A stretch of 57,342 bases of DNA, counting the filler, from Stramenopiles sp. TOSAG23-2 (Eukaryota), in NCBI GenBank assembly GCA_900128395.1. It is 3 parts of 3 records of this genome, joined end to end, with 100 filler letters (N's around TTAATTAATTAA, not from the genome) between each part and the next. Parts side by side here need not be neighbours in the genome. Positions count along the whole stretch, not along the records: positions 38,322 to 57,342 come from LT649593.1; 2 more parts are not named here. The stretch is one strand, 5' to 3'. The stretch's first letter is position 1. Each line of letters opens with the position of its first letter. The notes beneath the pieces are model-generated. The model saw only the letters and a list, made by a program, of their open reading frames with translations. It was not told the origin of the DNA and did no database searches. Below, one piece after another: positions 38,075-56,820 of this stretch. Both the position numbers and the translations under genes were made by a program.

Positions 38075-38221
38075 ATTAAAAATATATAATATGTGTTTCG
38101 TAAAATACATTTTAGTGGCGTGTGTGTGTGAGGGAAAGGGGTTTTTTTTATAATAGTCAGGTATATCTGGTACTTCAAAATTAAAAAATTTAGCTGGTGT
38201 TCTCGGTGCACAGATATTGTG

Positions 38222-38321
38222 NNNNNNNNNNNNNNNNNNNNNNNNNNNNNNNNNNNNNNNNNNNNTTAATTAATTAANNNNNNNNNNNNNNNNNNNNNNN
38301 NNNNNNNNNNNNNNNNNNNNN
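38222..38321. other. Artificial scaffold linker (44 N + TTAATTAATTAA + 44 N)
   Basis: Same structure as 19062-19161. Confidence 0.97.
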
Positions 38322-39079: not shown

Positions 39080-39835
39080 TTTTTTTGTATCATATACTGT
39101 GTAATATGAGATATAATGGGGGAAAAAGAAAAAAAATAATGATGTATTACATTATATATATTTTCTATAACGCAGTAATAAGAGTAGTTTGTAGTTTTTT
39201 TGTATCATATACTGTGTAATATGAGATATAATGGGGGAAAAAGAAAAAAAATAATGATGTATTACATTATATATATTTTCTATAACGCATGTGAAGTGAA
39301 CTTTGTTGAATAATAGGACGGGGAATTTATTAGAAAGAAAAAAGAAAAATACGATATATATATATATACAGTATACAGTACAGAGTAAATGCTGTGTATG
39401 ATATTAACGTAAAAGAAGAGAGTGGGGAGGAGACGACCTTTAAAATGAATTCAATAAATTTTGTAGAAAATTAGAAATTAAAATCAATTTTATTTTTTTT
39501 TTATAATAATCCACCATGAGATATATAGGATTTTTTCATATACTACTAGAAGTACTAGAAAACGAAGTGGCCAGGTGGCATCAAGACTTTTCTGTCTTTG
39601 ATAAAAAAATGGGGGGCGCGAGGTGCAAAAGAGTCAACAGTGTTTATTTTTACGTAATGTGCTATATATTATAGTGTTTAAATTATAAAAATAGTTTATG
39701 TATGTAGAAGATAAAAGTATAGCTCTACAAGAAACATATTTATACAGAATAAAAGCGTTGTTCATTTATTGCTGAATCAGTTATATACTATAATACATTC
39801 CAAAGTCGTAGAAAGTGAAACTGCTTTTGTTAAGA

Positions 39836-42823
39836 ATGACGTTGTCGTTGTTAGTTCAGTTAATATTGTTTTGTTTCATATTAGTTTCGTATGTTGATTG
39901 TAAACAGGATGATTTTACTTGTGAACCTGGTTATGGTACGATACCAACAGATATTCGTACATCTGGTTTAGCATCACAATGTAGTGGTCTATCTAAAATA
40001 ACAACACCAGCAGAATGTAAATTAGCAGCTGAATATAATAGGGAGAATAATATTGATAAAAATGAAGGATATGGAGGCCGAGTGAGTTCGTCGAGGGCTC
40101 CACCTGGATGTTATTATAGTGGTGGTAGTAAATATTATTGGAATATATACACAAAATCAACAGCACAATGTAGTAATAGTTTCAAATGTATATGCAAACC
40201 AAAAACATGTATCAAATGCCCTATCAATACATATAGTGAAGGTGATATCAATCCAATATGTACACCATGTCCAAACGATAGGCCAATAACAAAAGATCCG
40301 GGACAAACTTCTGTTGATTCGTGTGTACCATTAAAATGTGAAGCTGGTTACGGTACGATACCAACAGATATTCGTACATCTGGTTTAGCATCACAATGTA
40401 GTGGTATATCTAAAATAACAACACCAGCAGAATGTAAATTAGCAGCTGAATATAATAATAGGAAGAATAATATTGATAAAAATGAAGGATATGGAGGCCG
40501 AAAGAGTGGGTGGTATTTTCCACCTGGATGTTTTTATTATAGTGGTGCTTATAAATATTATTGGAATGACTACCCAACATCAACAACACAATGTAGTAAT
40601 GGTTATAAATGTATATGCAAAACAAAAACATGTATCAAATGCCCAATCAATACATATAGTGAAGGTGGTATCAATCCAACATGTACACCATGTCCAAAAG
40701 ATACACCATATACAGCAACAAATTTATTAAATATATTTACTTCTATTAATAGTTGTGCAGAAGAAAAAGATCCACTTTATTGTGAAGCTGGTACCAAATA
40801 TTTTCATGTTGATAACGAAGATAAAATACCTGTACGTGATTCTGATACGTGTACTCATCAAATAACAACAGAAGCAGAATGTAAATTAACAGCTGAATAT
40901 AATAGGAAGAATAATATTGATAAAAATAAAGGATATGGAGACCGAGTGAGGGATACGGTTTATCCACCTGGATGTTATTATTTGAGTGGTTATGGTGATA
41001 ATAAAAATTATTATTTTAATGACAACACAACATCAACAACAAAATGTAATAATAAACGTAAATGCATCTGCAGACGAAAAACATGCCGCAAATGCCCAAT
41101 CAATCAATACTCCGCAGGTGGTGCTGGAAGTAGAGCAAAGTGTCAACAATGTGTACGACCATTCATAACAGATGAACATCGTACAAAATGTTACAATCCA
41201 GAAATTGCAAATCAAATAAAACAATTCAAATTAGATTTAGTAGCACAAAAAGAAAAACAAAATGATTTATCCATTAAAAATTCACGTTTATGGCAAAAAG
41301 AACAAATTAGAAAACGTCATGATGAATTAATGGAACATCGAAAAGACGATGATAACATGAAAGAGAAAAATCATTGCAAAAGGGAAAAAACGAAACGTAC
41401 TATTGTTTTTCCTGCAATTGAAATATCAAATGAAATAGAATTAAATGAAGATACTACATGTATTGATACAAATCGTGATGAATTATTAAAATCATTTTGT
41501 AGTTTTAGAATGGATTTAGATAATTTATTTCAAATACAAAATGTTGATGAAGAAGCAAAAACATTTTGGCCAAATATATGTTGTAAAGAACGCAAGGATA
41601 AAACATTAGAAGCATGCGAAGATCCTAATGGTAAAATTGAACGTGAAAATATTATACCATTTGCATTATCACAAGGTGGTGATTATAGTCGTCATAATTT
41701 ATATGTTGAAGTTGCTGATACGATTAAACAAGATGGTTATTTACAAAAAGGTATGATCAATTTATTGGAATCCTTACTAACACATATAAAACGATCGGAT
41801 CAAACAGATGCAAAAGATAAAGTGAATACATTCTTCGAACATATTTCATTATGTGGTCCACGTATTATTGATGAACCAGGTTCAAAAGATAAAACAAAAT
41901 TATGTCAATTATTTATTCCATATCAACATGCAATGACACAATTTTACAATTTAATTCATCATTTATTTGCAACACCTATACCAATACAAGAATCATCATC
42001 GTTGATTGAAACATCAATGGAAAAATCATTATTAAATCGTCAATCATTATCTATTACTAATAAGAAAACTCGTTTAGGAAAAAATCGTGGTACAAAAAAT
42101 TTACATTCAACATTTAATCCACATCTTGCGAATGTTATGGCATCAAAAGCAAAAGATGGAACGAAAAAAAAAGAAACATGTGCAATTGATGCAAAGTTTG
42201 GACGAAAGGAATTAGCAAAAATGAAAACTACATATTGTAAAGGTTCCAATGGATTAGATTTATCCAATACAAATGTTAAAAATATTGCATTATATTTTTT
42301 AGATAATGAAATATCAACCCATTATACAGAACATATGATTAGTGTTGAAGAAAATATACGTTATGATGTAGATGATACAACATGTCCATCAAAATTATTT
42401 CAAGCAAAAGATATATCGATACAAAAAATTGCAATGGATACAAACGGAACGGCTGAGAAAAAAGAATGGGTAGCAGTAGTTCATTTAAATACCGAATCTG
42501 AAAATGGATATTTACAAAGTGAATTACCATATTGTGATGCAAAAAATTATTTAATTAATGCAAAAGTTCATGTCAAAGCATATATTGATAATGATAATTG
42601 TTGTAAAGGTTATCGTGATTTTAAATTATGTAAAACACATGATGGTTGTGAGAAGAAATTGATACCACTGAATGATGTTAATAATAAACATTTTGTTAGA
42701 CATGTCAGGTTAACAGGTTCAGATTATGAAATTGTAGATGATGATACAAATAGGAGGAAAAGAAGAAGATTATTTACATCATCAACAAGATCTGCAAGTG
42801 GTAGTTGTGCAAATCGACTTTAA
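39836..42823 (+). CDS. Large secreted Cys-rich protein with three tandem repeats (GCC2/GCC3-like CxxCPxNTYS motifs)
   Basis: Signal-peptide-like MTLSLLVQLILFCFILVSYVDC; three ITTxAEC...PPGCYY...CIC...CxKCPINxYS modules; coiled coil; C-terminal RRKRRRL. Confidence 0.85.
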   Translation: MTLSLLVQLILFCFILVSYVDCKQDDFTCEPGYGTIPTDIRTSGLASQCSGLSKITTPAECKLAAEYNRENNIDKNEGYGGRVSSSRAPPGCYYSGGSKYYWNIYTKSTAQCSNSFKCICKPKTCIKCPINTYSEGDINPICTPCPNDRPITKDPGQTSVDSCVPLKCEAGYGTIPTDIRTSGLASQCSGISKITTPAECKLAAEYNNRKNNIDKNEGYGGRKSGWYFPPGCFYYSGAYKYYWNDYPTSTTQCSNGYKCICKTKTCIKCPINTYSEGGINPTCTPCPKDTPYTATNLLNIFTSINSCAEEKDPLYCEAGTKYFHVDNEDKIPVRDSDTCTHQITTEAECKLTAEYNRKNNIDKNKGYGDRVRDTVYPPGCYYLSGYGDNKNYYFNDNTTSTTKCNNKRKCICRRKTCRKCPINQYSAGGAGSRAKCQQCVRPFITDEHRTKCYNPEIANQIKQFKLDLVAQKEKQNDLSIKNSRLWQKEQIRKRHDELMEHRKDDDNMKEKNHCKREKTKRTIVFPAIEISNEIELNEDTTCIDTNRDELLKSFCSFRMDLDNLFQIQNVDEEAKTFWPNICCKERKDKTLEACEDPNGKIERENIIPFALSQGGDYSRHNLYVEVADTIKQDGYLQKGMINLLESLLTHIKRSDQTDAKDKVNTFFEHISLCGPRIIDEPGSKDKTKLCQLFIPYQHAMTQFYNLIHHLFATPIPIQESSSLIETSMEKSLLNRQSLSITNKKTRLGKNRGTKNLHSTFNPHLANVMASKAKDGTKKKETCAIDAKFGRKELAKMKTTYCKGSNGLDLSNTNVKNIALYFLDNEISTHYTEHMISVEENIRYDVDDTTCPSKLFQAKDISIQKIAMDTNGTAEKKEWVAVVHLNTESENGYLQSELPYCDAKNYLINAKVHVKAYIDNDNCCKGYRDFKLCKTHDGCEKKLIPLNDVNNKHFVRHVRLTGSDYEIVDDDTNRRKRRRLFTSSTRSASGSCANRL

Positions 42824-42997: not shown

Positions 42998-43915
42998 TCA
43001 CTCTCGTCTACGTTTTGTACCACCACCTCCTTGTTTCTTTTTTAATTTTCTTCCTTTCATATGTTTTGAATATTTACTTGAACGTCTACCACGTTTATCT
43101 TTATATGATTGGTTATTATTAGTATTATTATTTGTTTTCTTTTTTTTCTTTGCCATACGGCTTGATCCTTTACCACCACCTAATCTTCGTGGCAACCAAT
43201 TATCAACTGTACGACCTCGTTCAACATCTACACGAATACGTTTACCTAATAATCTTAATCCTTCTGCACGTTTATATGCAACTTTGACACTTTCTTCATT
43301 TTCATATTCAACAAATCCATATCCACGATGTGGTGTTGCTTTACTATTACTATTGTTGTTGCTGTTGTTATTATTATTATTATCACCTTGTTGTTTCACA
43401 TCTTTAATCAATGTAACTTTTTTAATTTTACCATATTCTTCTAACAATTCACGCAAATCATCTTCTCGTACATCATAACTTAAACGTGCAACAAATAATG
43501 TTGCCATAGGATTTTCAGTTATAGCATCATTATTTTTAACATTTAATTTCGTTTCTTTTTCTTTTTTCCATTTTTCAATTTCAATTTTTAATTGTTTCTC
43601 GTGCTCTGCTATTTTTTCTTTTCGTAATCGTTTGTTCTTTTCTTCTTTTGATTCTGGTGTTTCTTTCGATTCTTTTTCTACCCTTTCTATATTTTCCTTG
43701 GATGATTCGAAATATTTCATATACGTAGATACACCAGTAACTTGTATTGGTGGTTTAAAATCCAATATAGGTGGTGGTATAAATGGTATTGGTGGCCTAC
43801 CAACAAATAATGCTTTCATAGGTGGATCAAACCATGCAGCTGGTGGTGCTTTGTTGTTTTTCGCATACCCACGCTTATTGTACCCAGCTTGTTTCGGTCG
43901 TTTTTGATATGGCAT
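42998..43915 (-). CDS. SNRNP70: U1 snRNP 70 kDa protein
   Basis: LFVGRPPIPF, NPMATLFVARLSY, RGYGFVEYE, RVDVERGRTVDNWLPRRLGGGKG. Confidence 0.95.
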   Translation of the reverse strand: MPYQKRPKQAGYNKRGYAKNNKAPPAAWFDPPMKALFVGRPPIPFIPPPILDFKPPIQVTGVSTYMKYFESSKENIERVEKESKETPESKEEKNKRLRKEKIAEHEKQLKIEIEKWKKEKETKLNVKNNDAITENPMATLFVARLSYDVREDDLRELLEEYGKIKKVTLIKDVKQQGDNNNNNNSNNNSNSKATPHRGYGFVEYENEESVKVAYKRAEGLRLLGKRIRVDVERGRTVDNWLPRRLGGGKGSSRMAKKKKKTNNNTNNNQSYKDKRGRRSSKYSKHMKGRKLKKKQGGGGTKRRRE

Positions 43916-45027
43916 CCTATCTGTATCAATATGTTTGGTTCGTTGGATTGTTTGTTAAAATATCTCTATATAGATTGCATCACATCATATCGAGATGTGT
44001 ATCGCATTGTCTATATATATCTATTTTAATTCATTTTTGGTGCTTCTTTGTGTTAGAGATTAAGATTTGTAGTAGAGATTTGTATTAGTTTCGTGCCCTT
44101 GCCGATTTTAGACCAAACAAGGCACTAAACCGAGAATGGGCATTAAGACACTATTAAACTTGTATCCTATTTCATGCGATCAACGGGCTTCAGTGCATTT
44201 TTGGTATATTTCAGGAAAATGCATTCAACTAATAGGAATCTTAGTATACAGGTATATATACTTAATATATTAAGTATGAACGAAATCAGAAAAGGTATAT
44301 TAATTTTTTCATCAAAATCGGTTAAAAAAAAGCAATACTGTGCTGTTATAACCATGAATTAAAACTACACAGTATAAGGAAAATTTCCCAAATTCCAGAG
44401 AGGTGGTTCAATTGAATCTAGCCCACCCAATCAATGGATGATTTTATTACACAGCAATAGCATTATATGGCGGTGATGGAGGATTTTGCGTTAAAAAAAA
44501 AACGATCACATTTCAGGAATTTTTATCATCTAAAAATAATCATCGAGTCAACTTGGTGATAGTAGTAAATAATTATTAATTATCGGATATTACTATTCCT
44601 ATCCGACTATAAACGGCCAGTTTGGTAGCTTAACACGACTAAACCTTATTTTTTTTGTATTAGCATAAGAATAGCATTATAATAGAGTTGAAGAGTAGGG
44701 TGCAAGCGGCCCCAAAATTTTCTTCCAACTATATTCCGAAATGTATCCAAATAGATATTAATAATAGATTAATAGTACAATATTTTGTATCATTTATGTA
44801 ATAATTCGTAGGTCCCGCTTCGTCTGCATTTTTTTTTACTAAAAAAAAAAAAAAAATGAAGAATGAAAACAGGTGGATAAATGAAATAAAACTGAGATAA
44901 ATAGACCAGAAGACGTTGTTGTATCAAACTGTATATACGGCTTGGATGCGTGGAAACAGATATATATAGGTTCGAGAAATATATAATAACCAGAGACAAC
45001 AACAACGAAAAAAGGTAAAGGAAAATC

Positions 45028-45336
45028 ATGTCGGTAATGTTGAAACCATTTGCGAGGTGGTATCAAAAAGAAGTGACAAAGCAATTGTCAAAATATGGTT
45101 TAAAATATGAGGATATGTTGGTAGAAAGTGCGGATGTACACCGTGCACATACGTTTATGACGGAGGAAGACCGTGTATCCAGGGATAGGCGTTTAAAACG
45201 TGCAATTGATTTGAATATTAAACATACATATTTACCTGTAGAAATTCAAGCATTGCAAGATCCATTAAATTTTTATTTGACTGACCATATTGACGAAGCA
45301 AAACTATTAAGAGAAGAAAGGGAATTGTTACAATAA
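45028..45336 (+). CDS. QCR7: Cytochrome b-c1 complex subunit 7
   Basis: KYGLKYEDML..E...V.RA.......R.RRLKRAIDL..KH.YLP...Q pattern; 102 aa. Confidence 0.93.
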   Translation: MSVMLKPFARWYQKEVTKQLSKYGLKYEDMLVESADVHRAHTFMTEEDRVSRDRRLKRAIDLNIKHTYLPVEIQALQDPLNFYLTDHIDEAKLLREERELLQ

Positions 45337-45727
45337 ATATATCAGTATATATATATAAATATATATACTGATATGGCATGTTCAAAAAAAGTATTTGATA
45401 ATAATAGTAATAGTTCAAAATATATAAATATTTTTCTCGTTAAAAAGTTTGAAAGGGATAGCATATATATTCATATATATATATGAGAAAGTAGTATATA
45501 CACGTATAGATGGAATATATTTTAAATCCATTATTACATCTTGTGTGTGTGTGTGTAAAATAAAGTGAAAAATATGAACTAGTATATGTACGAATTGCAA
45601 AACACAGGTGTCTTCTCTTTGCACACTCCCTTGTACAAAGTGTACAAAACCACACTCGGCTCTCGGCTACGTATATTTAATAAAAAGATTTACAGAAAAA
45701 CATACACACATTATATATAAATATTTT

Positions 45728-47519
45728 TTAATCATCAAACTCACTGAAATCATCATTGTTACTATTACCATCTTTACCCTTTGCACCCTTTGCACCACCT
45801 TTAACACGTCGTCTACGTCTTCTTCTATTTTTTTTGTTTTGACTATGACTGGACATTAATTGATTAAATCGTTGTTGTCCAACTTTGGCTATTTTTGCTT
45901 TGTCTGCTTTATCATTATGATATTGCATTGGTGGATCCATTGCTTGTTGGGATACATCATGTATCGTAGCAAATCGACAAAATAGATCATGTTCCGTACC
46001 TGCTGTTCCATAACTATCGTTTCTATTCTTTGAATAATGTTTACATCCCAACCATGTATAACCAAATACATCCAAACCAGCATCTTTTGCTGCGTTTTTA
46101 GCTTCATCAGTTAATGATGATAACAATGCACGTTTTGCTTCAAACTCATCCAGAAATTGTAAATTGCAACTACTACCATCTAAATATCGTATACCTAATA
46201 TATTATGGCCATTGAAATAATCTTTAATATCTGCATTACTTAGATTATCAACACCATACATATGTAGTACATTCGTACGACGTTTGATATTATGTGGTAC
46301 TTCACGACGTGGTACCCTAACTTTTTCTTTCTTGCCATCTGCTTCCTCTTCGCCATTATTATTTTGTGTTGGATCAACTAAACCAAAACGTTCTAAACGA
46401 GCTTGTCGTTTTTCTTGATCAATTGCTATATTAGGATCAATCACTTCCTCCGATTCCCCTGTATTATCATTGCCAAATCTAGCATTACGTTCTGCCATTT
46501 TTTTCTGTTCCTGTTCTGACATTAAATCAAATCCAGCAATAATACTACCCACTTCTGTTTGTGGATTTTCGAATGAATCAACATTTTCTGTTTTATGACC
46601 CCACCATACTGCATGTACATCAATATTATCATTATCTTTGTCATTTGGTACATGTAATTGAATTGGTTCCGTAATATCAGCTGGTGAAATACGATGATCG
46701 TATCTTTATATATATATACATAGATAAACAATTTATTTACATTCATTATGTTTAAAAATTTATGTTAGAGTTGTTTTTTCTGTGTATCAGGTGTGAAATG
46801 AAACGAAATCATATATATGTGATTCTATATTTATATATATATATTACTTACTGTCTAAAAAATTTTCCATTTAAAAATATAACAAATCCAGTTTTATTAA
46901 TAGTACAACGCCATTCAAAACGTTGTCCATCTTTAATTGGAACTTTTTTCAATTCAGTGCCACCCGCATCCCAAATATATTCACGTTTTGTCCCTAATAA
47001 TATACGACTATATTTACGTACACGGTGTAACCTTGGATTAAAATGCATTAAAAATGTTTCATGATCTTGTCCTATTGCAATATTTAATGAACAACGACCA
47101 ATTCTACGTGGCATTGTTGCCCATACAATAATTGTATTGCCTCCATCCTCTGGATTACTACTAACTGGTCCTAAAATCTGTGTAATTGGTCCACTGTTTC
47201 TAACATCACCATGGCCTTTGATTAACAAATCCGCAGATGCTTCTGCATTTTCCATCATTAAACGAAATGTATCAATAGCTGCAGGTGCTGAACCAAAACG
47301 TTGTGCACGTTGTTGTGCTAATTGCATAGCTTGTTGTATTAATGCTGGATTAATTTTATGTGAATAACTAATAGGTGGTTGTTGTTGTTCTGTTGTATTC
47401 ATGGCATTGTCTGTAGTAATAGCAGTTGTTGTCGTTGCAAAATCTGCATTTACTTTGATTTGTTCATTGTTATCACCTTCACCAAAATCAACTTCTTCCT
47501 CCTCTTCCATGGATGTCAT
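45728..47519 (-). CDS. Galectin-fold + NCBP3-like (nuclear cap-binding subunit 3) protein, two exons (47519-46852, 46703-45728), 547 aa
   Basis: A GTAAGT...AAAG intron at 46851-46704 joins FLNGKFFR-Q-YDHRI in frame (1644 nt total). Galectin motif MHFNPR..W; NCBP3 motif LHMYGVDNLSNADIKDYF...RYLDGSSCNLQF.....AKRAL. Confidence 0.85.
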
Positions 47520-47949
47520 GTTTTGATGTTGTTGTTGTTTATCTTTTAATATTAATGAATATAAAAAATAACTAATTTTGTTTTTATTATTAATATATAT
47601 ATATATATAATCAGAAATTTAATATAATTAACAAAATAAATATATCTTGTCTTCTTCTTCTTATCTCTGTATTTTTGTTTGTTTGTTCACACCGACGACG
47701 AGTAAAAAAAAAAAAACAACCAGATGTCACTATATATGTATATATATATGATATATCTAGTAATGGTAGATGTAGACAAGTGAGTGAGTGATTGTTGATG
47801 TTCTATCTATTGATAAATCTATTTTCAGGGTCATTTATTCAATTATAAAAGCGTCGTCGTTTGTTGTTGTTTTTGTGGTGTGGTTGGTGCGGTGGAGGTG
47901 CAGGTTAAGGTAAGAGAGAAGCAGGGACATACCATTATATCGGGATATA

Positions 47950-48729
47950 TTAACAATAAATACAAAAATATACACTTAAGATAATATGTAAAAATTTATA
48001 TTTATTTAGATTGACGGACGTTCTTGCAAAGCTTATGTTGTCCAGTTGGTCTTGGGTGGTTTTTAGATCATTTATATCAGACGTATTTTGATAAACTTGC
48101 GATATAAGTTTTTGCATCAGACTCGTTTTGGTTTGTGCTAACATATTGTTAGAATTGCCGTACATAAAGGTGCCATATATTACCAGAAGTAAATTCAGTT
48201 TAAATACCCCCGAACACATATTACATATGATACAAGGCCGTTTACCGGAGTAGCCAACGATACAAAATTGGGCAACAGCTGTTGCTCCAACAAGATTGTT
48301 TACCGTAAATTCTTCCAAACTACTGTCAACCATACAAATGTATTGTTGTCTTTCATAGCCCCTTTCTGATACCAGAACAAAAGCCTTATGAGTGCATTTA
48401 AACAACATTGTATCTTCATCATTTTTGAGACACCAAATTGGAATTGTCTTTTGTTTGACACCATACTTTACACAAAGTAATATATGCAAACTGTATATAT
48501 CTTCGCTCCTTTTCACAGCCAGCTTCATTTTCTGGGTGTCTTTCAATGTATATTGATCCTCAATACCAACTTGATCCTCATCAATACCAACTTGATTCTC
48601 AAAACTGGTTACAAACGACGATTGTGGATTTGGCTCTTGATTTATATATTTATCAAATGCCAATGTTAATTTCTCCATTTCTGTCATCCTGAATAAATCT
48701 TTCAAACCCATTACTGCTTTCTTATGCAT
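47950..48729 (-). CDS. Hypothetical ORF (259 aa), no recognisable family
   Basis: Long open frame in an AT-rich genome; lacks the Asn tracts of neighbouring genes. Confidence 0.4.
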   Translation of the reverse strand: MHKKAVMGLKDLFRMTEMEKLTLAFDKYINQEPNPQSSFVTSFENQVGIDEDQVGIEDQYTLKDTQKMKLAVKRSEDIYSLHILLCVKYGVKQKTIPIWCLKNDEDTMLFKCTHKAFVLVSERGYERQQYICMVDSSLEEFTVNNLVGATAVAQFCIVGYSGKRPCIICNMCSGVFKLNLLLVIYGTFMYGNSNNMLAQTKTSLMQKLISQVYQNTSDINDLKTTQDQLDNISFARTSVNLNKYKFLHIILSVYFCIYC

Positions 48730-48923
48730 TTCAGAGGAAGTTCATGGTGGTACCTTAGCTGAAGCTCCATTTTTTACTGCAACAAATAATGTAACGTATC
48801 GAATTGATTTGAATGTGGTAAAAAGAAGATTAGGGGACATGGCATTTGGGGATCAGCCATGACCCCAGGCCTTTAACCACAGGAAGAAAATTAATAATAA
48901 ACTTAATAATCATATAAATAAAT

Positions 48924-49157
48924 ATGGAGAATAATAATAACAATAACAATGAAATGATGGTAGAAATGAGACAATTGTTAAAACAATTGATTCCATTGTT
49001 GAAACAGCAAAGGAGATCTCAAAAGGTAAACCAGCCAACAGGCTATACATTGTTTAGGAGGAATGGGGGAAGAGCGTGGAATGCTCTTACCCAAGAAGAA
49101 CAAGGTGTGTGGAATACAGAAGCAAAAGCGATAGGAAGAGGAAGAAGAGTTCGTTAG
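48924..49157 (+). CDS. Small protein with partial HMG-box-like motif
   Basis: KVNQPTGYTLF ... GRAWNALTQEEQGVWNTEAK. Confidence 0.5.
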   Translation: MENNNNNNNEMMVEMRQLLKQLIPLLKQQRRSQKVNQPTGYTLFRRNGGRAWNALTQEEQGVWNTEAKAIGRGRRVR

Positions 49158-49432
49158 AGAGTGAGAGCGGAGTTCGCGGCGAGCTTTGAACCTTTTTTTT
49201 CCGTTTTTAGTGTTGAAATTAAGGTTATTGTTTGAAAAGAAGAAAACCTTAACCTAAACCTAAAACCACTACACAAAAAAAAAAGCTAAAAAAACTACTG
49301 AAAAACAAATTAAAATGTAATTGCAATTTAAATTGTTGTTGATGTACATAGTTCGTCATGTTTCATTCATCCACAAAAAAAAAATACAAGACAAGATACA
49401 AAAGAACTATATAGCAAAAATCATCTTCAACA

Positions 49433-51316
49433 ATGTTACGGAATATAATACAAAACAATGGTGTGAAATATTTAAGACAAAGTCGTAATAATAATAAAAA
49501 AAATATTTTTTTGTATCATTATTTTTTCAATTATCATAGTCCAATTCAACAAATACCATTACCCACACAACAACAACAACAACAAGTACAATATCGATAT
49601 ATATCATCAAACATCCCACCGTTTTTAAATGAAACAAAAAACGATGCTGTGCAAAAAATAATAACATTAGAGCAACTTGATACAAATTTAAATCAAACAA
49701 AATCATATCGTAAAACATATATGATTGATTTAGACAATGATCTTGCAGATGATGATGATAATAATAATAAAATGAAAAATGTATTGAAAGATATTCGTTT
49801 AAAAGCAGCATCACGTGACCGACTATTACTTGTAAATAATAATAACAAAAACAACAAAGATGAAATAGAAATACTTACCAATGAAATTGGTTGGTTAAAA
49901 ACACGTGAATTTATCGAAGAAGATGATGATTCAATAATTACTGAATATCTTCCAAATGAAGGTAAATATATTACAGACATGTCCAATTTTATATTTAAAA
50001 CAATTATTGGATATGAACGTTTAGAACATCAACCAATTGATTTAAGAAATGCATTTGCATTTTATTATGGACATATTTCTGCATTTACTGATATCATTGC
50101 ATTGCAATTGCCTGCATATGAGGAAGAACGTATAAAATTTGAACGTGGAGTAGATCCAGATGTCGATAATCCAGATAATATTGATCATCGACATTCAGAA
50201 CGTCATCAAATTTGGCCATCACCAAATGTATTTGAAAAATATGCAAATGATGTTGAACTTGCATTGGTTGATTTAATAAAAGAAAATGGTATGACAAGAG
50301 AATCCGTTCTTGTAACAGAACATGCTGATATGCATTATGAAACATTGATGTATAATTTAAATGGTTGTATGGATATGTCAACAACACGATTAGAGGATCG
50401 AAACGATGGTATAAATGATGGCACCGTGCCAATTCATCCATTTGCAACATTTATGACACCAATTGAAACAAAACGTATTGATGATTCTTTATTAATGGAA
50501 TATCCATATGTAGCAATACCAACAACAACAAAAATAAAATTAGGAATAAATGAAAATGAATTTAATTCAAATGGTTTTGGATGGGATATTGAATTGCCAG
50601 TTCAAACACAAGATGAAGTCGTAAATGCTTTTCTAGTTGGACAACTTCCTGTAACAAATAATGAATTTCTTGAATTTATACAAGATAATGGATACGAGAG
50701 AGAAGAATTTTGGGAAACAAATGCATATGAATGGATAAAACGTGAATCTATTCAACATCCCAAATTATGGTTTGGTGCATCGTCATCATCATTTGGTGTA
50801 CGAACTGTATGTGATGGGATCGTAATGAATGATAAAAGTGGTGATTGGCCAGCAATTGTTACATTGTTTGAAGCAAATGCATATTGTAATTGGAAAGGTA
50901 ATGGTGCACGAATCATGACCGAAGAAGAATACCATGCCATATTTAATAACAATGATGAATTATATGCATATGCTAGTAAATATGGCAATAATAATTGGAA
51001 ATATCGATCGTGTGTACCAGTTGGAACAATGAATGATGGTATTATGCGCCATCAAGAAGATGATGATAATAATAAAAAAATATATGATTTAGTTGGAAAT
51101 GGATGGGAATGGACATCGTCAATATTAAAACCACTTGATGGTTTTGAAAGTATGAAAGATTATCCTGAATATAGTTCTGATTTTTTTGATGGCAAACATT
51201 ATGTTGTAAAAGGTGCAAGTTCATTTACTGGGAAAAGCAATCAACGTCTTAGTTTTCGTAATTGGTATCAAGGGAATTATCCATATGTACATGCAAAGTT
51301 TCGTATCTGTATGTGA
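49433..51316 (+). CDS. Ergothioneine-pathway sulfoxide synthase (Egt1/EgtB-type; DinB_2 + FGE-like domains)
   Basis: PIDLRNAFAFYYGH, FERGVDPDVDNP, iron motif EHADMHYETL (HxxxHxE), PVTNNEFLEFI..GY, GNGWEWTSS, YPEYSSDFFDGKH and RLSFRNWYQ. Confidence 0.9.
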   Translation: MLRNIIQNNGVKYLRQSRNNNKKNIFLYHYFFNYHSPIQQIPLPTQQQQQQVQYRYISSNIPPFLNETKNDAVQKIITLEQLDTNLNQTKSYRKTYMIDLDNDLADDDDNNNKMKNVLKDIRLKAASRDRLLLVNNNNKNNKDEIEILTNEIGWLKTREFIEEDDDSIITEYLPNEGKYITDMSNFIFKTIIGYERLEHQPIDLRNAFAFYYGHISAFTDIIALQLPAYEEERIKFERGVDPDVDNPDNIDHRHSERHQIWPSPNVFEKYANDVELALVDLIKENGMTRESVLVTEHADMHYETLMYNLNGCMDMSTTRLEDRNDGINDGTVPIHPFATFMTPIETKRIDDSLLMEYPYVAIPTTTKIKLGINENEFNSNGFGWDIELPVQTQDEVVNAFLVGQLPVTNNEFLEFIQDNGYEREEFWETNAYEWIKRESIQHPKLWFGASSSSFGVRTVCDGIVMNDKSGDWPAIVTLFEANAYCNWKGNGARIMTEEEYHAIFNNNDELYAYASKYGNNNWKYRSCVPVGTMNDGIMRHQEDDDNNKKIYDLVGNGWEWTSSILKPLDGFESMKDYPEYSSDFFDGKHYVVKGASSFTGKSNQRLSFRNWYQGNYPYVHAKFRICM

Positions 51317-51641
51317 GATGGAGAGTGACCAGGTGAGATGACATATGTGAGTGTGTGAATGCGGAAAGGAGAGATATCAGATGTGTGAAATGATGTTGTA
51401 TTTATTAGATAAGAAAGTGTGTCTAAAACAATATATTTTTAATAATATTTTTCAACTTAAAAACCACCTCTTACTCTTGTACTACAGTATATGTTTTGTT
51501 TTGAATTGCATCTAAATTCAATATTAAATTTGAATGAACTAAGATTATTAATTATAAATAACTAAGAGACAGAGAGTATAATTATACACACATATACAGA
51601 AAACATATATATATATATATATATATATACAATTACACACC

Positions 51642-52601
51642 ATGGCGTCAATAGCTACGAATCTACCACCTGCAAAGCGACAACGCACTACGTCGTTAAA
51701 ACAATCGACAATTGAAGCGTTAGAAGAGGAACGTGCAGAACCTATTGAAATTGGTATATTAGTTTTACCAGCTGGATTTGAGTCTGCCTGCGGGATAATG
51801 ACAAAAATACTTCTACATTTAGATATTCGATCATTATGTAATGTGAAACGATCATCTTTGATCCAACAATGTAGAAAAGCATTTAGATGTGATGATTTTG
51901 AACGTGTACGTGATGAAGCATTGAGTATTGATTATGAAGGTAGAAGAAGTATAAATGAGATGAGACTTTCACATCCAGCGAGAAGACTTTATTTATTAAT
52001 TGAAAGATATCAAAGAGAGTTTCCACGTGGTACTTATCACAGAGGTCGAATACCAACACCTATCGTATGTGCATGTCAACACGGACGTACGAATGATGTA
52101 GAATTATTTATGAATCTTCATCCTTTTCACAAGTATATTACTAATCGTGATGTGAATGGCTACAGAGATGATATGACATTGAAAGATATGGTGAGTCAAG
52201 TCGGTAAAACTAGTGAAGGTTATGATCGTACACCTTTAATGGCAGCTGCAGAGAACGAAGATTTCCAACTAGTTAAATATTTGATTGAACAATGTGAAGC
52301 TGATCCTAATATTGCAAATAGTGTTGGATGGAATGTATTGCATTGTGCATCATGGCGTGACAGAACGACTATTGATTTGATTCAATTCTTGTTGAATTAT
52401 ATGTCTCTTGATAGTATTAATCAGCGTGATAGAGTGTATGGACAAACTCCTTTAGACTGGTGTTATGAATTTAATGATAGCCCAATTCAACAAGAGATCA
52501 TTGCACTTTTACGTTCAAAAGGTGGAATTGCAAATAAATTTGATGCAAATGGTAATCGTATAGAATCAGAATCAGAAGACGATGAAGTAGACGATTACTA
52601 A
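51642..52601 (+). CDS. Ankyrin-repeat protein with weak F-box-like N-terminal segment
   Basis: TPIVCACQHG, TPLMAAAENE..LVKYLI, GWNVLHCA, GQTPLD; upstream IMTKILLHLDIRSLCNV. Confidence 0.85.
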   Translation: MASIATNLPPAKRQRTTSLKQSTIEALEEERAEPIEIGILVLPAGFESACGIMTKILLHLDIRSLCNVKRSSLIQQCRKAFRCDDFERVRDEALSIDYEGRRSINEMRLSHPARRLYLLIERYQREFPRGTYHRGRIPTPIVCACQHGRTNDVELFMNLHPFHKYITNRDVNGYRDDMTLKDMVSQVGKTSEGYDRTPLMAAAENEDFQLVKYLIEQCEADPNIANSVGWNVLHCASWRDRTTIDLIQFLLNYMSLDSINQRDRVYGQTPLDWCYEFNDSPIQQEIIALLRSKGGIANKFDANGNRIESESEDDEVDDY

Positions 52602-52798: not shown

Positions 52799-55051
52799 TT
52801 ACCGCCCTGGCGCCTCCCCCGTACTTATAATCTGCAATAACGCACCGATGTTATTTTTCTTCACCGCTTTCCTACATGCAGCTATTACTTTTGTTGATGG
52901 TTTACCAATACGTAACCTTGCTGCTTTTTGTATCACACTATTTAAATGTTTTAAATTTTCCATTAAATGCGCATGGTTATTTGCACGTTTCGAATACTCT
53001 CGTATCAAATCACTATTTAAACCATATAATGAATTATATGTCTTTTTCATACGATTATAATCGCACATAATACGTGCATCTTCCGCTCTTATTACTAATG
53101 TTTTCACTAAATGAGAATTATCTGCCATTTCCGCAGTTAATTGCTGTCGTATTTGTTTAAAATTATCCACGTTGTCTAAGACATTTCGTAACTTATCCAT
53201 TTCAACTGGAAACTTCGCCGTTGTTTCTAAATTATCAATTTGTATACTTTGACCCATATCTTGAATCAAATCCCCTACAATTGCCATATCATCGCACATA
53301 ATGGTAACTTGACAACCACCATTTTTACGCTCATCAACTAAAAATACCAATGGCATTCCATTACGTAAGGAACTGAGTTCCAATACAATATTTACATTTG
53401 CTTCTTTTAAATACGTATCCTCAGCCGTTAATGTTATTTGTTTTGCAAGCCAATTCGCTATCACTCGCACTTGTTTTTGCAATGTAAATACACAACTAGA
53501 ACTTGGTCGTTGCACAGGTCCTTTGGATGGTGCAAACATTGCAAATTTAGGTAATTTATGAGGCAATTTAAATACATGAAATTGTTCATTGTTTCCACGT
53601 GCTCCCACTAATGCATGGATTTCTAAATCCGTTGCAATATCTTTTTGTGGCCTTAATGGTATAACAAGTGTATTGGATGCATTTTTTGGATGCACGACAT
53701 AACTTTCACCATCAAATACACCACCATCCATACTATATACAGCTGCACAACGTACAACACTATTATTATCTGTTGTTGCCACGGAGGAATCTTTTGTTTT
53801 TGATTCTGTCGTTTTCGTTTCTGTTTTCAATATTAAATCTAAACATGATTCCTCATCATTAATACGCAATTCAACTCCGATGGATGTATCAGGTGAAATG
53901 ACTGCATGTCCACTATCACCACTTTTAATCTGTCTCACGTTTCCTTGCAAACCTTTTAATTTCATTAATAATTCTTGTTTTTCTTGCAATAAATCTTCAA
54001 CAACTGCATCTCCTTTTTTCTCATCGACCATCAAAGTTGTCCATAATTTATCATCATATGCAGAATATCCTCTTACATGACCATCTTGACTACATACAAT
54101 AATTTGATCTTGACTTTCATCTACTTTGTAATTTGCAGTAACCATTCCACTAACAAGATCACTTAATGTATCTTTGTAGACGACTTTACCATCATGATCA
54201 CGCCGTACTTCAAATTTACCATTGCCCCATCCAGTACATAATTCTTTTACCCCATCATTATCTAAATCAAATGCTTTTAATGCAGTTGCTTTGTTTCTTG
54301 ATTTAACACGCCAAATACGTTTACAATCTTTGTATACACCTACGGTACCATTATCCAATGAGTAACCATATAATTGTCCACTTAATGCTTCCAATCCGCG
54401 TATACGCGATGTTTCCGTAAATTCATTTAATACTTCTTCCCCCCTAAAATGTCGTATTTCGTAATCATCACTACCTACTAATAATTCTGGTTTTCCATCA
54501 CCATTTACATCAGCAAGTGCTAATGCATATGCATGATCCCCACAAACTGTCCAAAATTCTTCTTGTCCACTTGCACTAAACCCATGTACGGAACAATTTC
54601 CTCCTACCAATGCTAATGTTGGCGCATCTGGTGCAGTATCAACTTTTCCACACAATAATGAATCAATACCATCTTGTACTTCTTTATAAAATAAATCTGT
54701 ATTTTCATCCACATTATATGCTAATAAATTTGTTCGTGTACCAATACATAACACATCTTTTCCATCCAATTTTGGATCTACTGGACCACATGCAACGGCA
54801 GTAATGTGGTTATTAATATTTAAAAAGGTAACTTTGTCTTCATTATTACTATTATTATCAACGTTTCCAAATTGATTATTATTATTATTATTTACATTTG
54901 TTTCGTGTGGATTATGCATCAATACTTTACCACCCGTGGTACCACAAGTTAAAGTTGGATGCTTTCCATCATAGAGTCCAACCGTAACACAACCTGGTAA
55001 AATAGTATTATTTAACGTGAATTTAAAGGATGCACCATATTCTAAATTCAT
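52799..55051 (-). CDS. BBS2: Bardet-Biedl syndrome 2 protein (BBSome)
   Basis: VGLYDGKHPTL.CGTTGGKV..HNP, LVGGNCSVHGF...GQEEFWTV, ELLVGSDDYEIR, LPKFAMF, AEDARI, IQKAARLRIG. Confidence 0.97.
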   Translation of the reverse strand: MNLEYGASFKFTLNNTILPGCVTVGLYDGKHPTLTCGTTGGKVLMHNPHETNVNNNNNNQFGNVDNNSNNEDKVTFLNINNHITAVACGPVDPKLDGKDVLCIGTRTNLLAYNVDENTDLFYKEVQDGIDSLLCGKVDTAPDAPTLALVGGNCSVHGFSASGQEEFWTVCGDHAYALALADVNGDGKPELLVGSDDYEIRHFRGEEVLNEFTETSRIRGLEALSGQLYGYSLDNGTVGVYKDCKRIWRVKSRNKATALKAFDLDNDGVKELCTGWGNGKFEVRRDHDGKVVYKDTLSDLVSGMVTANYKVDESQDQIIVCSQDGHVRGYSAYDDKLWTTLMVDEKKGDAVVEDLLQEKQELLMKLKGLQGNVRQIKSGDSGHAVISPDTSIGVELRINDEESCLDLILKTETKTTESKTKDSSVATTDNNSVVRCAAVYSMDGGVFDGESYVVHPKNASNTLVIPLRPQKDIATDLEIHALVGARGNNEQFHVFKLPHKLPKFAMFAPSKGPVQRPSSSCVFTLQKQVRVIANWLAKQITLTAEDTYLKEANVNIVLELSSLRNGMPLVFLVDERKNGGCQVTIMCDDMAIVGDLIQDMGQSIQIDNLETTAKFPVEMDKLRNVLDNVDNFKQIRQQLTAEMADNSHLVKTLVIRAEDARIMCDYNRMKKTYNSLYGLNSDLIREYSKRANNHAHLMENLKHLNSVIQKAARLRIGKPSTKVIAACRKAVKKNNIGALLQIISTGEAPGR

Positions 55052-55521
55052 CTTTTTAATTTAAAAAAAATTTATTTTTTTTTTCTTTTCCTTTTAGAAA
55101 TTTATATATATGCTTCGTATCTATAATATATATATATAAGTAGTAGTAACAACAAAATGATACACAACAATATATGATATATCTATAAATATATATATAT
55201 ACTATTCACATCAATACATCGAGTTGGGGTGTATATAGGTCCATTTTTAACTGAAATTCATTTTAATTTTCGAATTCCACATTCTCATCAAGTATAAATT
55301 ATGTGTCTTTTTGATAGGAAAACTAGATGTATTATTCTATAAATTTTTATAATTTTTTTTTTTTAAAATTAAAATCATCTCTTTTTTTTTCTGCGCTTCT
55401 GCGCCTCTGCGCCTCTTTCTCTTCTGCTTTTGCCTTTTTGGATTGAAATTTTTCTGAAAAAAATATTTTTTAATTCTTATATTTTGTTTGTTTGTTTTCT
55501 CTCTCCGACTTTAAACATACA

Positions 55522-55614: not shown

Positions 55615-56817
55615 CTATTGCGATTGTGGTGGTGGTTGTTGTTTATATGGCAATGGTTGATGAAATTGTTGTTGATGTAACATCTGTTGCTGTTGTGGAA
55701 TATATGATACTGGTGGTGGTTGTTGTTGCTGTTGCATCGGAACGATTGGTACATTCATTGGAAACATATGATTGTTATTATGATAAACCATTGAACCTGT
55801 ATTATTCATCACACCATTATCTAGACGAACTTTGATTTGCCTTCCATTGATACGTGTACCATTCATTTCTTTAATCGCACGTTTTGTCGTTTCAGCATCT
55901 TTAAAACGTACAGTACCACATCCTTTTGAACGACCATCATGGTTCAACTGTATAATTGCAAATTCAGGATTATATTGAACAAAACTATCTTTCAATTCCA
56001 TCCAAGTACATGTCCATGGCAAATTAGTGACAAAACAAACAGAATCTTTTACGTATACTTTAGGTTTCGTTGTTTTTTGCGCTTGTTGTTGTTGTTGTTG
56101 CTGTTGTTGCTGCTGCTGCATGTGATGATGATGTGCCATTTGCTGTGCCATTTGATGATGTGTCATTGGATTTGCCATTGGGATCATTCCATTTGCCATT
56201 TGATGATGATTTTGCATTTGATTATTTGCATGCGTATACATAAATGGTTGATGCATATTCAACGTTGTTTGCCCATGTTGCTGCTGGTGTTGCTGATGCA
56301 TTTGCGCTTGTATATGCGGTGGAAATTGCGATTGTTGAAATGGATTTTGATGATGATTTTTAAAAATACTATTATTGTGATGGTGATGTGGATTATAATG
56401 ATGGTGTTGTTGATGATGATAATGTCTATTATCACGACGTTTTGGTTTAAATTTCCGTGACTGGTCTTTTTTACCAACATCATAACGAACTTCCAACATT
56501 CTACCATTGTAATTGAAACCATTTAATAATTGTATCAATTTCACCGATCCTTTCGAATTTACGCATTTAATAATTGCATATCCTCGACTACGATGATCAC
56601 TTCCATAAATTACAGTAGCTGATTCAATAACATTGCCAATTCTCCCTGTTACATTTGTTTTTAAAAAATCATTGAATTCTACATCTGTCACGGACCAAGG
56701 CAAATTATTTACAAAAACACTTTTCACATCTTTGTTGTTGCTTTTTTTTGTCATTGTATTTGCATTTTTTCCATTTGTTTGTAACTGTTCGTTGACACTA
56801 TTCTTAGTTGTAATATT
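55615..56817 (-). CDS. GBP2/hnRNP-M-like RRM protein (two RRMs seen; 5' part rearranged)
   Basis: VFVNNLPWSV...GSDHRSRGYAII and CFVTNLPWTCTWMELKD...DGRSKGCGTVRF...MNGTRINGRQIKVRLD. The frame is open upstream of ATG 56754. Confidence 0.85.
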   Translation of the reverse strand, partial: NITTKNSVNEQLQTNGKNANTMTKKSNNKDVKSVFVNNLPWSVTDVEFNDFLKTNVTGRIGNVIESATVIYGSDHRSRGYAIIKCVNSKGSVKLIQLLNGFNYNGRMLEVRYDVGKKDQSRKFKPKRRDNRHYHHQQHHHYNPHHHHNNSIFKNHHQNPFQQSQFPPHIQAQMHQQHQQQHGQTTLNMHQPFMYTHANNQMQNHHQMANGMIPMANPMTHHQMAQQMAHHHHMQQQQQQQQQQQQAQKTTKPKVYVKDSVCFVTNLPWTCTWMELKDSFVQYNPEFAIIQLNHDGRSKGCGTVRFKDAETTKRAIKEMNGTRINGRQIKVRLDNGVMNNTGSMVYHNNNHMFPMNVPIVPMQQQQQPPPVSYIPQQQQMLHQQQFHQPLPYKQQPPPQSQ

Positions 56818-56820
56818 AAA

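Follow-up and report, generated by a model that had tools for sequence, protein, structure and literature searches.

The gene at 45728..47519 on the minus strand of a 57,342-nucleotide stretch of Stramenopiles sp. TOSAG23-2 DNA (GCA_900128395.1; the whole stretch is referred to as the window) is best read as encoding an NCBP3-family protein of a MAST-4-like marine stramenopile. Taking all lines of evidence jointly, we consider it likely that this is one spliced NCBP3-family gene whose product carries an inserted galectin fold and acts as a predicted bridge between the cap-binding complex (CBC) and UAP56. Here we document the splice, the domain order, their conservation in relatives and, on a structural model of the homologue P0006, the galectin fold.

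A single spliced transcript encodes both domains

The gene comprises two coding exons separated by a short intron, all on the minus strand. Exon 1 (46852..47519) begins with an ATG at 47519-47517 and encodes aa 1-222 and the first two bases of Gln223; exon 2 (45728..46703) supplies the last base of Gln223 and aa 224-547 and ends with a TAA stop at 45730-45728. The intervening 148-nt intron (46704..46851) has a GTAAGT donor from 46851, an AG acceptor at 46705-46704 and a GC content of 19%, versus 35% in the exons. The spliced coding sequence (1644 nt, 547 aa) contains no internal stops, whereas the unspliced frame runs through exon 1 and meets its first stop, at codon 224, inside the intron. 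A relative that is 83% identical (L002) has a 107-nt GT..AG intron at the same codon and in the same phase. The preliminary description had proposed that removal of 46851-46704 unites two open reading frames and that the junction completes the C-terminal signature of a galectin. Both proposals held: the GT..AG intron yields an open 547-aa frame and its joint occurs in RNA contigs, the junction reads ..FFR-Q-YDHRI.. as claimed, and the galectin domain is complete only across it. The predicted lack of a signal peptide also agrees with the N-terminus of the 547-aa product, which is acidic and without a hydrophobic run.

RNA evidence came from assembled contigs of mixed communities in four metatranscriptome runs (X2, X3, X5 and X6). 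The exact joint 46703->46852 (a skip of 148, CT..AC on the plus strand) was present in polyA contigs from two of the four runs, representing two studies, placing both domains on a single spliced transcript and bearing out the junction at 46852/46703 for which RNA-seq reads had been proposed as a check. In X5, one contig (side 255) of 1518 nt covered 45705-46703 and 46852-47369, and in X6 the joint was again carried by one contig (side 30). The joint was absent from the contigs of X2 and X3; X2 contigs end at 46665 and begin at 46852, and missing coverage does not count as evidence. RNA contigs extend to 47540. An X2 record joining 47687 to 45823, with 22 foreign letters between them and T-rich loose ends, was taken as an assembly chimera. 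We consider it extremely improbable that the gene model is an artefact in which two adjacent genes were falsely merged. Prokaryote-style gene calls in databases do split the gene (P0003, P0004 and P0005), and one X3 contig (46173-47848) retains the intron, but the GT..AG joint is exact in both studies, the stop that would end exon 1 lies only inside the intron, the galectin domain is whole only over the junction, and P0006, P0007 and P0035 each run collinearly as one protein.

The inserted domain has a galectin fold

The galectin-fold domain (46586..47240 including the intron, minus strand; aa 94-262) contains H-F-N-P-R at aa 159-163 and W-W-G-H at aa 256. Exon 1 alone matched Gal-bind_lectin (PF00337) at 31.5 bits, above the Pfam cut-off of 22.1, and full-length homologues scored 42.3-57.4 bits. 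A family HMM recovered one domain over the junction, aa 94-262, at 212.9 bits versus 161.2 bits for exon 1 alone. The structural model is that of P0006, a homologue with ~66-74% identity to the window protein (74% in exon 1, 68% in exon 2). Its overall pLDDT was 74.8, with the galectin and RRM-like domains mostly above 90. In Foldseek, this model gave 386 PDB matches at E<=0.001; these include galectin-8N (7aen_A, E 4e-10, TM 0.83), and the top ranks among the matches listed were all galectins. VIA returned a best Z of 18.8 (rmsd 2.4 A, 144 residues aligned), galectins occupying ranks 1-21 (Z 12.3-18.8) and other lectin or glucanase sandwiches reaching Z<=12.0; because galectin-domain matches filled both lists, they barely cover neighbours of the RRM-like domain. 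With the Pfam cut-off passed and the P0006 model matching galectin CRDs, the galectin assignment of the preliminary description stands, and we are confident from this homologue model that the inserted domain adopts the galectin beta-sandwich.

UAP56-type motifs, RRM-like domain and C-terminal helix

Three R-x-x-R-F-G motifs were located on the minus strand by regular expression: a helix at 47292..47348 (aa 58-76) with R-A-Q-R-F-G at aa 71; a second motif at 46472..46534 (aa 280-300) with a G-F-D-L.. lead-in and R-N-A-R-F-G at aa 295; and a third at 46382..46423 (aa 317-330) with R-L-E-R-F-G at aa 325. The equivalent of motif 1 is a helix at residues 66-83 of the P0006 model, with pLDDT ~96, the G-F-D..R-x-x-R-F-G block of motif 2 aligns to green algal, Ancoracysta and oomycete members of the NCBP3 family, and motif 3 of the window protein matched Tho1_MOS11_C (PF18592) at 19.2 bits, under the cut-off of 26.8. 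The published DDX39B/UAP56-interacting motif consists of R, K/R at +3 and F at +4, and in Tho1 the residues R139/R159, K142/K162 and F143/F163 touch the C-terminal RecA domain of DDX39B (PMC10508174). The three window motifs, earlier likened to those of Tho1/MOS11/SARNP, fit this consensus. For human NCBP3, a SARNP-like 'putative UCM' is reported, with an AlphaFold-Multimer prediction on UAP56 RecA2 (PMC12823420); the UAP56 motif is already published for the human protein, and the new element is the galectin domain.

The NCBP3 RRM-like domain (PF10309; Pfam core 46121..46279, minus strand, aa 365-417) lies in exon 2 and scored 39.6 bits, over the curated cut-off of 28.9, upholding the NCBP3 assignment; residues 367-472 of the P0006 model have pLDDT >90. 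Human NCBP3 carries the cap-binding motif W-L-D-D in the beta2-beta3 loop (PMC4595607), at a position where alignment A6 places Y-L-D-G of the window protein (aa 396-399; 46175-46186). The window protein departs from W-L-D-D, retaining one aromatic residue and one Asp; the equivalents are W-L-D-G in P0006 and P0007 and W-[LI]-[ND]-D in algal members. Further downstream, a C-terminal helix and basic tail (45800..45880, minus strand; aa 498-524, G-Q-Q-R-F-N-Q-L-M-S-S .. Q-N-K-K-N-R7) form a candidate CBP80-binding helix and NLS. Human NCBP3 binds the CBC via helix 574-594, in which W581 is key and Q578, L584 and I585 are named, and has a basic stretch at 591-597. Set against these residues as named in a paper's text rather than by chain alignment, the window helix has Phe in place of Trp, preceded by Q at -3 and followed by L at +3 and M at +4, and Q-N-K-K-N-R compares with the human basic stretch. 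P0035, P0185 and P0047 have Trp at the position of this Phe, and the helix (498-521) has low pLDDT in the P0006 model. PDB sequence searches yielded no NCBP3 chain with a relative's C-terminus and no meaningful match with exon 2. NCBP3 is reported to co-purify with DDX39B/TREX.

A widespread core with a lineage-restricted insert

NCBP3 was detected in 79 of 86 homology matches scanned, with Tho1_MOS11_C at E<=0.001 in 57 of these 79 and above the cut-off in 36; members include Volvox, Chlamydomonas, Astrephomene and Ancoracysta. In each of the 15 full-length proteins checked, three R-x-x-[RK]-F motifs precede the RRM. The core of three motifs and RRM is widespread in eukaryotes and ordinary, not special to the window protein. 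The insert, in contrast, lies between motifs 1 and 2, which are 223-241 aa apart in the galectin-bearing type versus 50-63 aa in 10 of 11 insert-free proteins (106 aa in Volvox P0071). At least five lineages share the insert, with identity falling to ~40%, and both domains exceed Pfam cut-offs in the full-length homologues P0006, P0007, P0185 and P0035. An architecture search across protists, as advised in the preliminary description, thus found the galectin and NCBP3 combination conserved in relatives. Counting its NCBP3 and RRM fusions together, this galectin subtype was seen in MAST-4-like lineages and labyrinthulomycetes, and it is missing from the NCBP3 proteins of algae, Ancoracysta and oomycetes; a metagenome scan for relatives returned only L001 and L002. 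In the literature, titles and beginnings of abstracts contained no relevant report linking galectin with NCBP3, no report combining a galectin domain with an RNA recognition motif was found, and a search on stramenopile galectin/RRM gave no 'galectin' paper among the matches listed.

The window galectin domain is most closely related to that of a labyrinthulomycete family in which the domain is joined to a canonical RRM, exemplified by the Hondaea fermentalgiana 'Galectin-related protein' (P0165). RRM_1 exceeded the Pfam cut-off in 7 of the 11 scanned members of this family, fell below it in 3 and was missing from 1. The NCBP3-type and galectin-RRM domains form a protist-only set that separates from 41 tandem-repeat galectin domains with SH-aLRT 99. 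Fusion of the same galectin subtype to an RRM in a second protist family strengthens, for this part of the tree, the idea of a galectin fold that acts together with RNA-binding proteins.

Other stramenopile NCBP3 proteins carry an N-terminal PF12248 (Methyltransf_FA) domain in place of the galectin insert, including those of Bremia lactucae (TDH71962.1), Albugo laibachii (CCA21932.1) and Aplanochytrium (EP00510_P004187). Atlas clusters suggest that diatoms share this combination. The Atlas matches (0.87, 0.75) are leads only. Comparison of the galectin-type and PF12248-type domains by hhalign gave a probability of 0.4% from very shallow alignments, too little to establish that the two folds are distinct; P0096, which bears PF12248, had no match when its sequence was searched against the PDB, and no report tying farnesoic acid to NCBP3 was found. 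The presence of a different extra domain in these proteins suggests that stramenopile NCBP3 benefits from carrying one more domain.

Proposed function and alternative explanations

By analogy with human NCBP3, the C-terminal aromatic helix and basic tail would dock on CBP80 of the cap-binding complex and the RRM-like domain would contact capped RNA. Each R-x-x-R-F-G helix, as in SARNP and Tho1, could grip one UAP56/DDX39B helicase by its RecA2 lobe, and the protein would then link a capped 5' end with several copies of UAP56 early in mRNP packaging and export. The galectin domain would have been inserted between motifs 1 and 2 in this lineage, adding one binding surface, and may have been taken from, or share an ancestor with, the protist family that combines the same domain with a canonical RRM.

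Canonical galectins contact sugar through seven residues: H, N, R, N, W, E and R. The window domain had been described as keeping H-x-N-x-R and W and lacking the downstream Asn and ExR contacts. The first part is borne out, as H-F-N-P-R and Trp are present and the second Asn is Gly; the second needs amendment, as the W-G-x-E-x-R loop holds a 3-residue insertion following the Trp, past which an E and a basic residue recur (E-L-K for the window's clade, E-L-D in P0035, P0185 and P0042). With only four of the seven canonical contacts in place, the sugar site is incomplete, and the balance tips slightly towards a non-canonical ligand, either a protein or an unusual glycan, over a classical beta-galactoside. 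We think it rather unlikely that the domain is a functional beta-galactoside lectin that anchors mRNPs bound by CBC/TREX to nuclear or pore proteins bearing glycans. Conserved sugar contacts within a nuclear protein call for a reason, given that H, N, R and Trp are invariant in 6 of 6 galectin-bearing NCBP3-type sequences aligned, that E-x-K follows in the window's clade and that the sister galectin-RRM family retains the second Asn and a D-[KR] pair. Yet every NCBP3-type member aligned has Gly for the second Asn, the loop carries the insertion, Asp replaces the basic residue in P0035, P0185 and P0042, and the structural matches include GRP and GRIFIN, galectin-fold proteins with similar losses. 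Neither GRP nor GRIFIN is known to bind lactose. More broadly, it is conceivable, and we propose it tentatively, that nuclear RNA-binding proteins have a dedicated, protist-only galectin branch in Sagenista (MAST-4 relatives and labyrinthulomycetes), built into NCBP3 in one lineage and joined to a canonical RRM in another, which serves as an mRNP-assembly module and not as an extracellular lectin.

Three features run against the CBC-UAP56 bridge: human W-L-D-D is Y-L-D-G, the Trp of the CBC helix is Phe, and Tho1_MOS11_C scores below its cut-off. The first two would suit a lineage-specific paralogue with NCBP3-like domains that acts outside CBC/TREX, for instance in RNA silencing like Neurospora SAD-8, and NCBP3-domain proteins with other roles are reported (PMC7263685). 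Such a paralogue appears quite unlikely given that the three UAP56-type motifs, RRM-like domain, C-terminal helix and basic tail occur in order and are conserved to ~40% identity. The preliminary description had gone further, proposing that the fusion would be Rosetta-stone evidence and pointing to SNRNP70 ~1.8 kb away, a closeness it allowed might be chance, and to the reported association of mammalian galectin-1/-3 with spliceosomal/U1 complexes. The U1-70K ORF (42998-43954, minus strand; U1snRNP70_N and RRM_1) is indeed 1,774 bp from the galectin-NCBP3 gene, but a UCR_14kD gene (45019-45336, plus strand) intervenes and meaningful proximity is unsupported; the L002 contig stops short of this region. 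Two independent architectures tie this galectin subtype to RNA-binding domains, NCBP3 and RRM_1. An ancient, general galectin role in spliceosome/U1 or mRNP biology, one accounting for nuclear galectin-1/-3 as well, is nevertheless very unlikely: both architectures fall within the single protist-only group, its range is narrow, NCBP3 of algae, Ancoracysta and oomycetes has no such domain, other stramenopile NCBP3 proteins have a different domain at another position, and the U1-70K gene is not adjacent. The link to mammalian galectin-1/-3 and the U1 snRNP is not sustained for a protist-only group with an incomplete sugar site; what survives of the Rosetta-stone argument is a conserved covalent fusion and a second fusion to an RRM.

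If true, the proposal of a galectin branch dedicated to nuclear RNA-binding proteins would provide the first covalent evidence for a galectin fold working inside the mRNA biogenesis and export machinery. Little is yet understood of NCBP3 as a partner of the cap-binding complex, exon junction complex and TREX, and its core of three UAP56-type motifs, RRM-like domain and C-terminal helix extends far past animals and fungi; stramenopiles have on two occasions gained a further domain on this core, each time at another position. In glycobiology, a galectin fold covalently held in nuclear RNA-binding proteins offers a clean system for its nuclear role, a long-standing question for mammalian galectin-1/-3. 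Thraustochytrids are culturable and transformable, and the presence of the sister galectin-RRM family in them makes the question testable even though MAST-4 is uncultured.

Comparison with known systems

Human NCBP3 (C17orf85/ELG) resembles the window protein in combining an RRM-like NCBP3 domain with one or more upstream SARNP-like UAP56-binding motifs. The candidate C-terminal helix of the window protein, aromatic and trailed by a basic stretch of Q-x-K-K-x-R type, is reminiscent of the human CBP80-binding helix 574-597. Both are nuclear (the window protein by prediction) and lack a signal peptide. The window protein is shorter (547 versus 620 aa), has Phe for W581 and Y-L-D-G for W-L-D-D, and alone carries the ~170-aa galectin fold between motifs 1 and 2; its RRM also contains an insertion missing from algal NCBP3 members. 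Tandem helical R-x-x-[KR]-F motifs are common to the window protein and SARNP/Tho1/MOS11, but those proteins have an N-terminal SAP domain, of which a Pfam scan found none in the window protein, where Tho1_MOS11_C reaches 19.2 bits against 26.8, and SARNP lacks both the RRM-like domain and the galectin fold. On sequence grounds, the window protein shares the motif of that family while standing outside it.

Animal and fungal galectins (galectin-8N, -9N, -4N, -3, GRP, GRIFIN and CGL2) match the fold of the P0006 model with Z 13.4-18.8 and rmsd 1.8-3.3 A across 125-146 residues, even though identity is just 14-25%. H-x-N-x-R and Trp are common to both, whereas the window domain has Gly for Asn and an altered W-G-x-E-x-R loop; those galectins are free or in tandem, whereas the window domain is embedded in a predicted nuclear RNA-binding protein. 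The galectin-RRM proteins belong to the same galectin subtype and have in common with it the N- and C-terminal extensions, which end in V-H-x-V-W-W-G-H, but their partner is a C-terminal canonical RRM_1 without UAP56-type motifs or an NCBP3 domain, and their sugar site retains the second Asn where NCBP3-type members have Gly. Finally, the PF12248-NCBP3 proteins share with the window protein three motifs, an RRM-like domain, a basic C-terminus and one extra domain, which in their case is located N-terminal of motif 1 and in the window protein between motifs 1 and 2.

The gene and its splicing

The galectin–NCBP3 gene reads on the minus strand from an ATG at 47519 to a TAA at 45730-45728 (minus strand throughout), with an intron whose GTAAGT donor begins at 46851 and whose AG acceptor lies at 46705-46704; its two exons correspond to the stop-to-stop frames 46848..47618 and 45728..46705. 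Scripted splicing of the window in place yielded a 1,644-nt coding sequence of 547 codons with 0 internal stops. The 148-nt intron has a GC content of 19%, versus 35% in the exons, and the unspliced reading reaches a stop at codon 224. Translation returned the junction peptide ..F-F-R-Q-Y-D-H-R-I.. exactly as previously proposed. An 83%-identical metagenome relative (contig L002) has the same two exons, separated by a 107-nt GT..AG intron at the same Gln codon and in the same phase.

Sequence from this stretch occurs, in part, in 24 sequencing runs (10 studies; 17 runs recorded as RNA), and contigs from four (X2, X3, X5 and X6) were examined. The predicted 46703->46852 joint, which skips 148 nt and reads CT..AC on the plus strand, that is GT..AG on the gene strand, was present in X5 and X6, polyA metatranscriptomes from different studies. 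One X5 contig of 1,518 nt carries it, spanning 45705-46703 and 46852-47369, as does one X6 contig with a shorter side of 30. The joint was found in 0 contigs of X2 and X3. X2 contigs end at 46665 and restart exactly at 46852, and one X3 contig (46173-47848) retains the intron and extends into the upstream spacer. This contig has 21 substitutions, 36 gap positions and many small indels within the intron and spacer, and probably derives from a second strain, as DNA or pre-mRNA. Such assembled mixed-community contigs show that the spliced form exists and are silent on its abundance. Each of the four RNA runs has contigs that are 3 bases shorter than the window at 46355, lacking one AAT (Asn) codon, an in-frame length polymorphism in the acidic linker after the third UAP56-type motif.

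A galectin fold within an NCBP3 protein

The preliminary description had assigned a galectin and an NCBP3 domain to one product; it was accurate, and the finding is real. Pfam recognized Gal-bind_lectin from exon 1 alone (31.5 bits; cut-off 22.1) and NCBP3 in exon 2 (39.6 bits; cut-off 28.9), with Tho1_MOS11_C at 19.2 bits, below its cut-off of 26.8. Exon 1 matched 66 chains among PDB sequences at E<=10; 60/60 matches listed were galectins, the best being galectin-4N (E 0.0028). A family HMM found a single domain at aa 94-262 of the spliced product, scoring 212.9 bits compared with 161.2 for exon 1 by itself, so the galectin domain is completed by the junction, as had been suggested.

A first structure model, from a two-sequence alignment, failed (pLDDT 34). 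The homologue P0006, modelled in place of the window protein and 74% and 68% identical to window exons 1 and 2, reached pLDDT 74.8 from an eye-checked 46-sequence alignment, with both domains mostly >90. Foldseek returned 386 PDB matches to this model at E<=0.001, headed by galectin-8N (E 4e-10, TM 0.83). In a VIA-align comparison with 48,161 chains, ranks 1-21 were all galectins (Z 18.8 to 12.3), and other lectin/glucanase sandwiches scored Z <=12.0.

The galectin fold is an insertion between motifs 1 and 2. These are separated by 223-241 aa in galectin-bearing proteins (224 aa in the window), versus 50-63 aa in 10 of 11 insert-free proteins from green algae, Ancoracysta, oomycetes, Aplanochytrium and unnamed sources; the eleventh, Volvox P0071, has 106 aa. 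The architecture is kept in P0004, P0005 and L002 (79-83% identical), P0006 (66%), P0007 (59%), the P0039/P0185/P0008 lineage (~40%), the fragment P0042 and the 591-aa P0035, which scores 54.1 bits for Gal-bind_lectin, 33.1 for NCBP3 and 29.7 for Tho1_MOS11_C.

A widespread core with varying additions

Searching 1.84 billion representatives with a profile built from two full-length homologues, we obtained 550 matches at E<=0.001; 136 of them had E<=1e-10 and 20 had E<=1e-30. The Pfam scan took in 86 of the best 150 of these 550; NCBP3 was present in 79, 57 of which also had Tho1_MOS11_C at E<=0.001 (36 exceeding its cut-off). Named sources include Volvox, Chlamydomonas, Astrephomene and Ancoracysta. 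By pattern search, all 15 full-length proteins examined carry three R-x-x-[RK]-F motifs ahead of the RRM-like domain; three extra matches elsewhere in P0007 and P0185 were judged incidental. We read the window protein as the NCBP3-family member of its lineage, which is presumably related to MAST-4, because a 59%-identical homologue is so named in EukProt.

PF12248 (Methyltransf_FA) was a different extra domain in 5 of the 86 scanned matches (P0096, P0116, P0143, P0149 and P0152), 4 of them above its cut-off; the sources are the oomycetes Bremia and Albugo, the labyrinthulomycete Aplanochytrium and two unnamed ones. It lies N-terminal of motif 1, ahead of the three UAP56-type motifs. As a lead only, the Atlas (score 0.87) suggests that this type occurs in diatom and oomycete clusters. 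Profile comparison of the galectin-type and PF12248-type domains, from shallow alignments, detected no similarity (probability 0.4%).

Origin of the galectin domain

PF00337 was present in each of the 37 galectin-side matches scanned. Twenty-eight were tandem-repeat proteins, including a giant from eel (P0036), by analogy with which alone this set is termed animal. The other nine had a single domain with a profile match extending well beyond the Pfam core and, like further relatives, end in a canonical RRM. RRM_1 was above cut-off in 7 of 11 members scanned, below it in 3 and absent from 1. They constitute a protist family with the same galectin subtype as the NCBP3 type and a C-terminal RRM (P0100, P0105, P0109, P0120, P0123, P0127, P0165, P0166, P0178 and P0206-P0210), to which the Hondaea fermentalgiana 'Galectin-related protein' belongs. 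Longer members also have in common a basic N-terminal region that contains a conserved P-x-R-Y-R..L-T-E-x-E..L-L..K-K-V-x-L-K-V block.

In a quick IQ-TREE analysis of 59 hand-picked domains (5 NCBP3-type, 13 RRM-type, 41 tandem-repeat), the NCBP3 and RRM types fell together, apart from the tandem-repeat set (SH-aLRT 99), and the two types occupied separate branches with supports of 98 and 95. The literature searched yielded neither a galectin insertion in NCBP3 nor the sister galectin-RRM family, and no paper combining a galectin domain with an RNA recognition motif. Nothing in our analysis supports the proposed extension to mammalian nuclear galectins.

Neighbourhood

The next downstream gene encodes the complex III 14-kDa subunit (45019-45336, plus strand; UCR_14kD, 72.1 bits). 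Beyond it lies U1-70K (42998-43954, minus strand), 1,774 bp from the NCBP3-type stop codon. The UCR_14kD neighbour is conserved in L002, which ends before any U1-70K position, and the proximity of U1-70K is most simply chance. BBS2 lies ~1 kb upstream of the NCBP3-type gene in L002 and is separated from it by ~5 kb in the window (BBS2 at 52799-55060). The intervening window stretch 47950-52601, compared with 3912-4990 of L002, contains frames without a Pfam match (47950-48741), with an FGE-sulfatase domain (49415-51316) and with ankyrin repeats (51582-52601), an insertion or a rearrangement.

Elsewhere, an open frame of 1003 aa (39812-42823, plus strand) begins in a signal-like manner, has Ephrin_rec_like as its sole Pfam match and contains a Cys-rich module (C-E-x-G-Y-G-T-I-P-T-D-I-R-T-S-G-L-A-S-Q-C-S-G..) in three copies. 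Two more RRM-type frames with long Gln/His-rich linkers overlap on opposite strands at the window end (55615-56844, minus; 56785-57342, plus). The N run at ~38210-38320 gives X in two reading frames.

Comparison with known systems

In the Tho1–DDX39B crystal structure, the UAP56-binding motif is a helix whose Arg, Lys +3 and Phe +4 contact the C-terminal RecA domain (PMC10508174), a definition matched by R-A-Q-R-F-G, R-N-A-R-F-G and R-L-E-R-F-G of the window protein. A figure legend in PMC12823420 gives human NCBP3 a putative UAP56 motif, with an AlphaFold-Multimer prediction on UAP56 RecA2; the motif part is therefore already known. The combination of UAP56-type motifs with an NCBP3 domain is ordinary and widespread, and has in part been published before. 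Measured against the literature searched, what is new is the galectin insertion into this known core, together with the sister galectin-RRM family.

In human NCBP3, helix 574-594 (L577, Q578, W581, L584, I585, R592) mediates binding to the cap-binding complex, and a basic stretch that finishes in Q-K-K-S-R comes after it. The window protein ends G-Q-Q-R-F-N-Q-L-M-S-S .. Q-N-K-K-N-R7, and comparison with the residues named in the text places Gln -3, Leu +3 and Met +4 around an aromatic. In this candidate CBP80-binding helix the aromatic is Phe in the window and Trp in P0035, P0185 and P0047. The human cap motif W-L-D-D (PMC4595607) is Y-L-D-G in the window protein. Compared with canonical galectins, the NCBP3-type domain retains H-F-N-P-R and the Trp, whereas the second Asn is replaced by Gly and W-G-x-E-x-R by W-D-x-x-G-x-E-L-[KD]; the RRM-type domain keeps the second Asn and has a D-[KR] pair.
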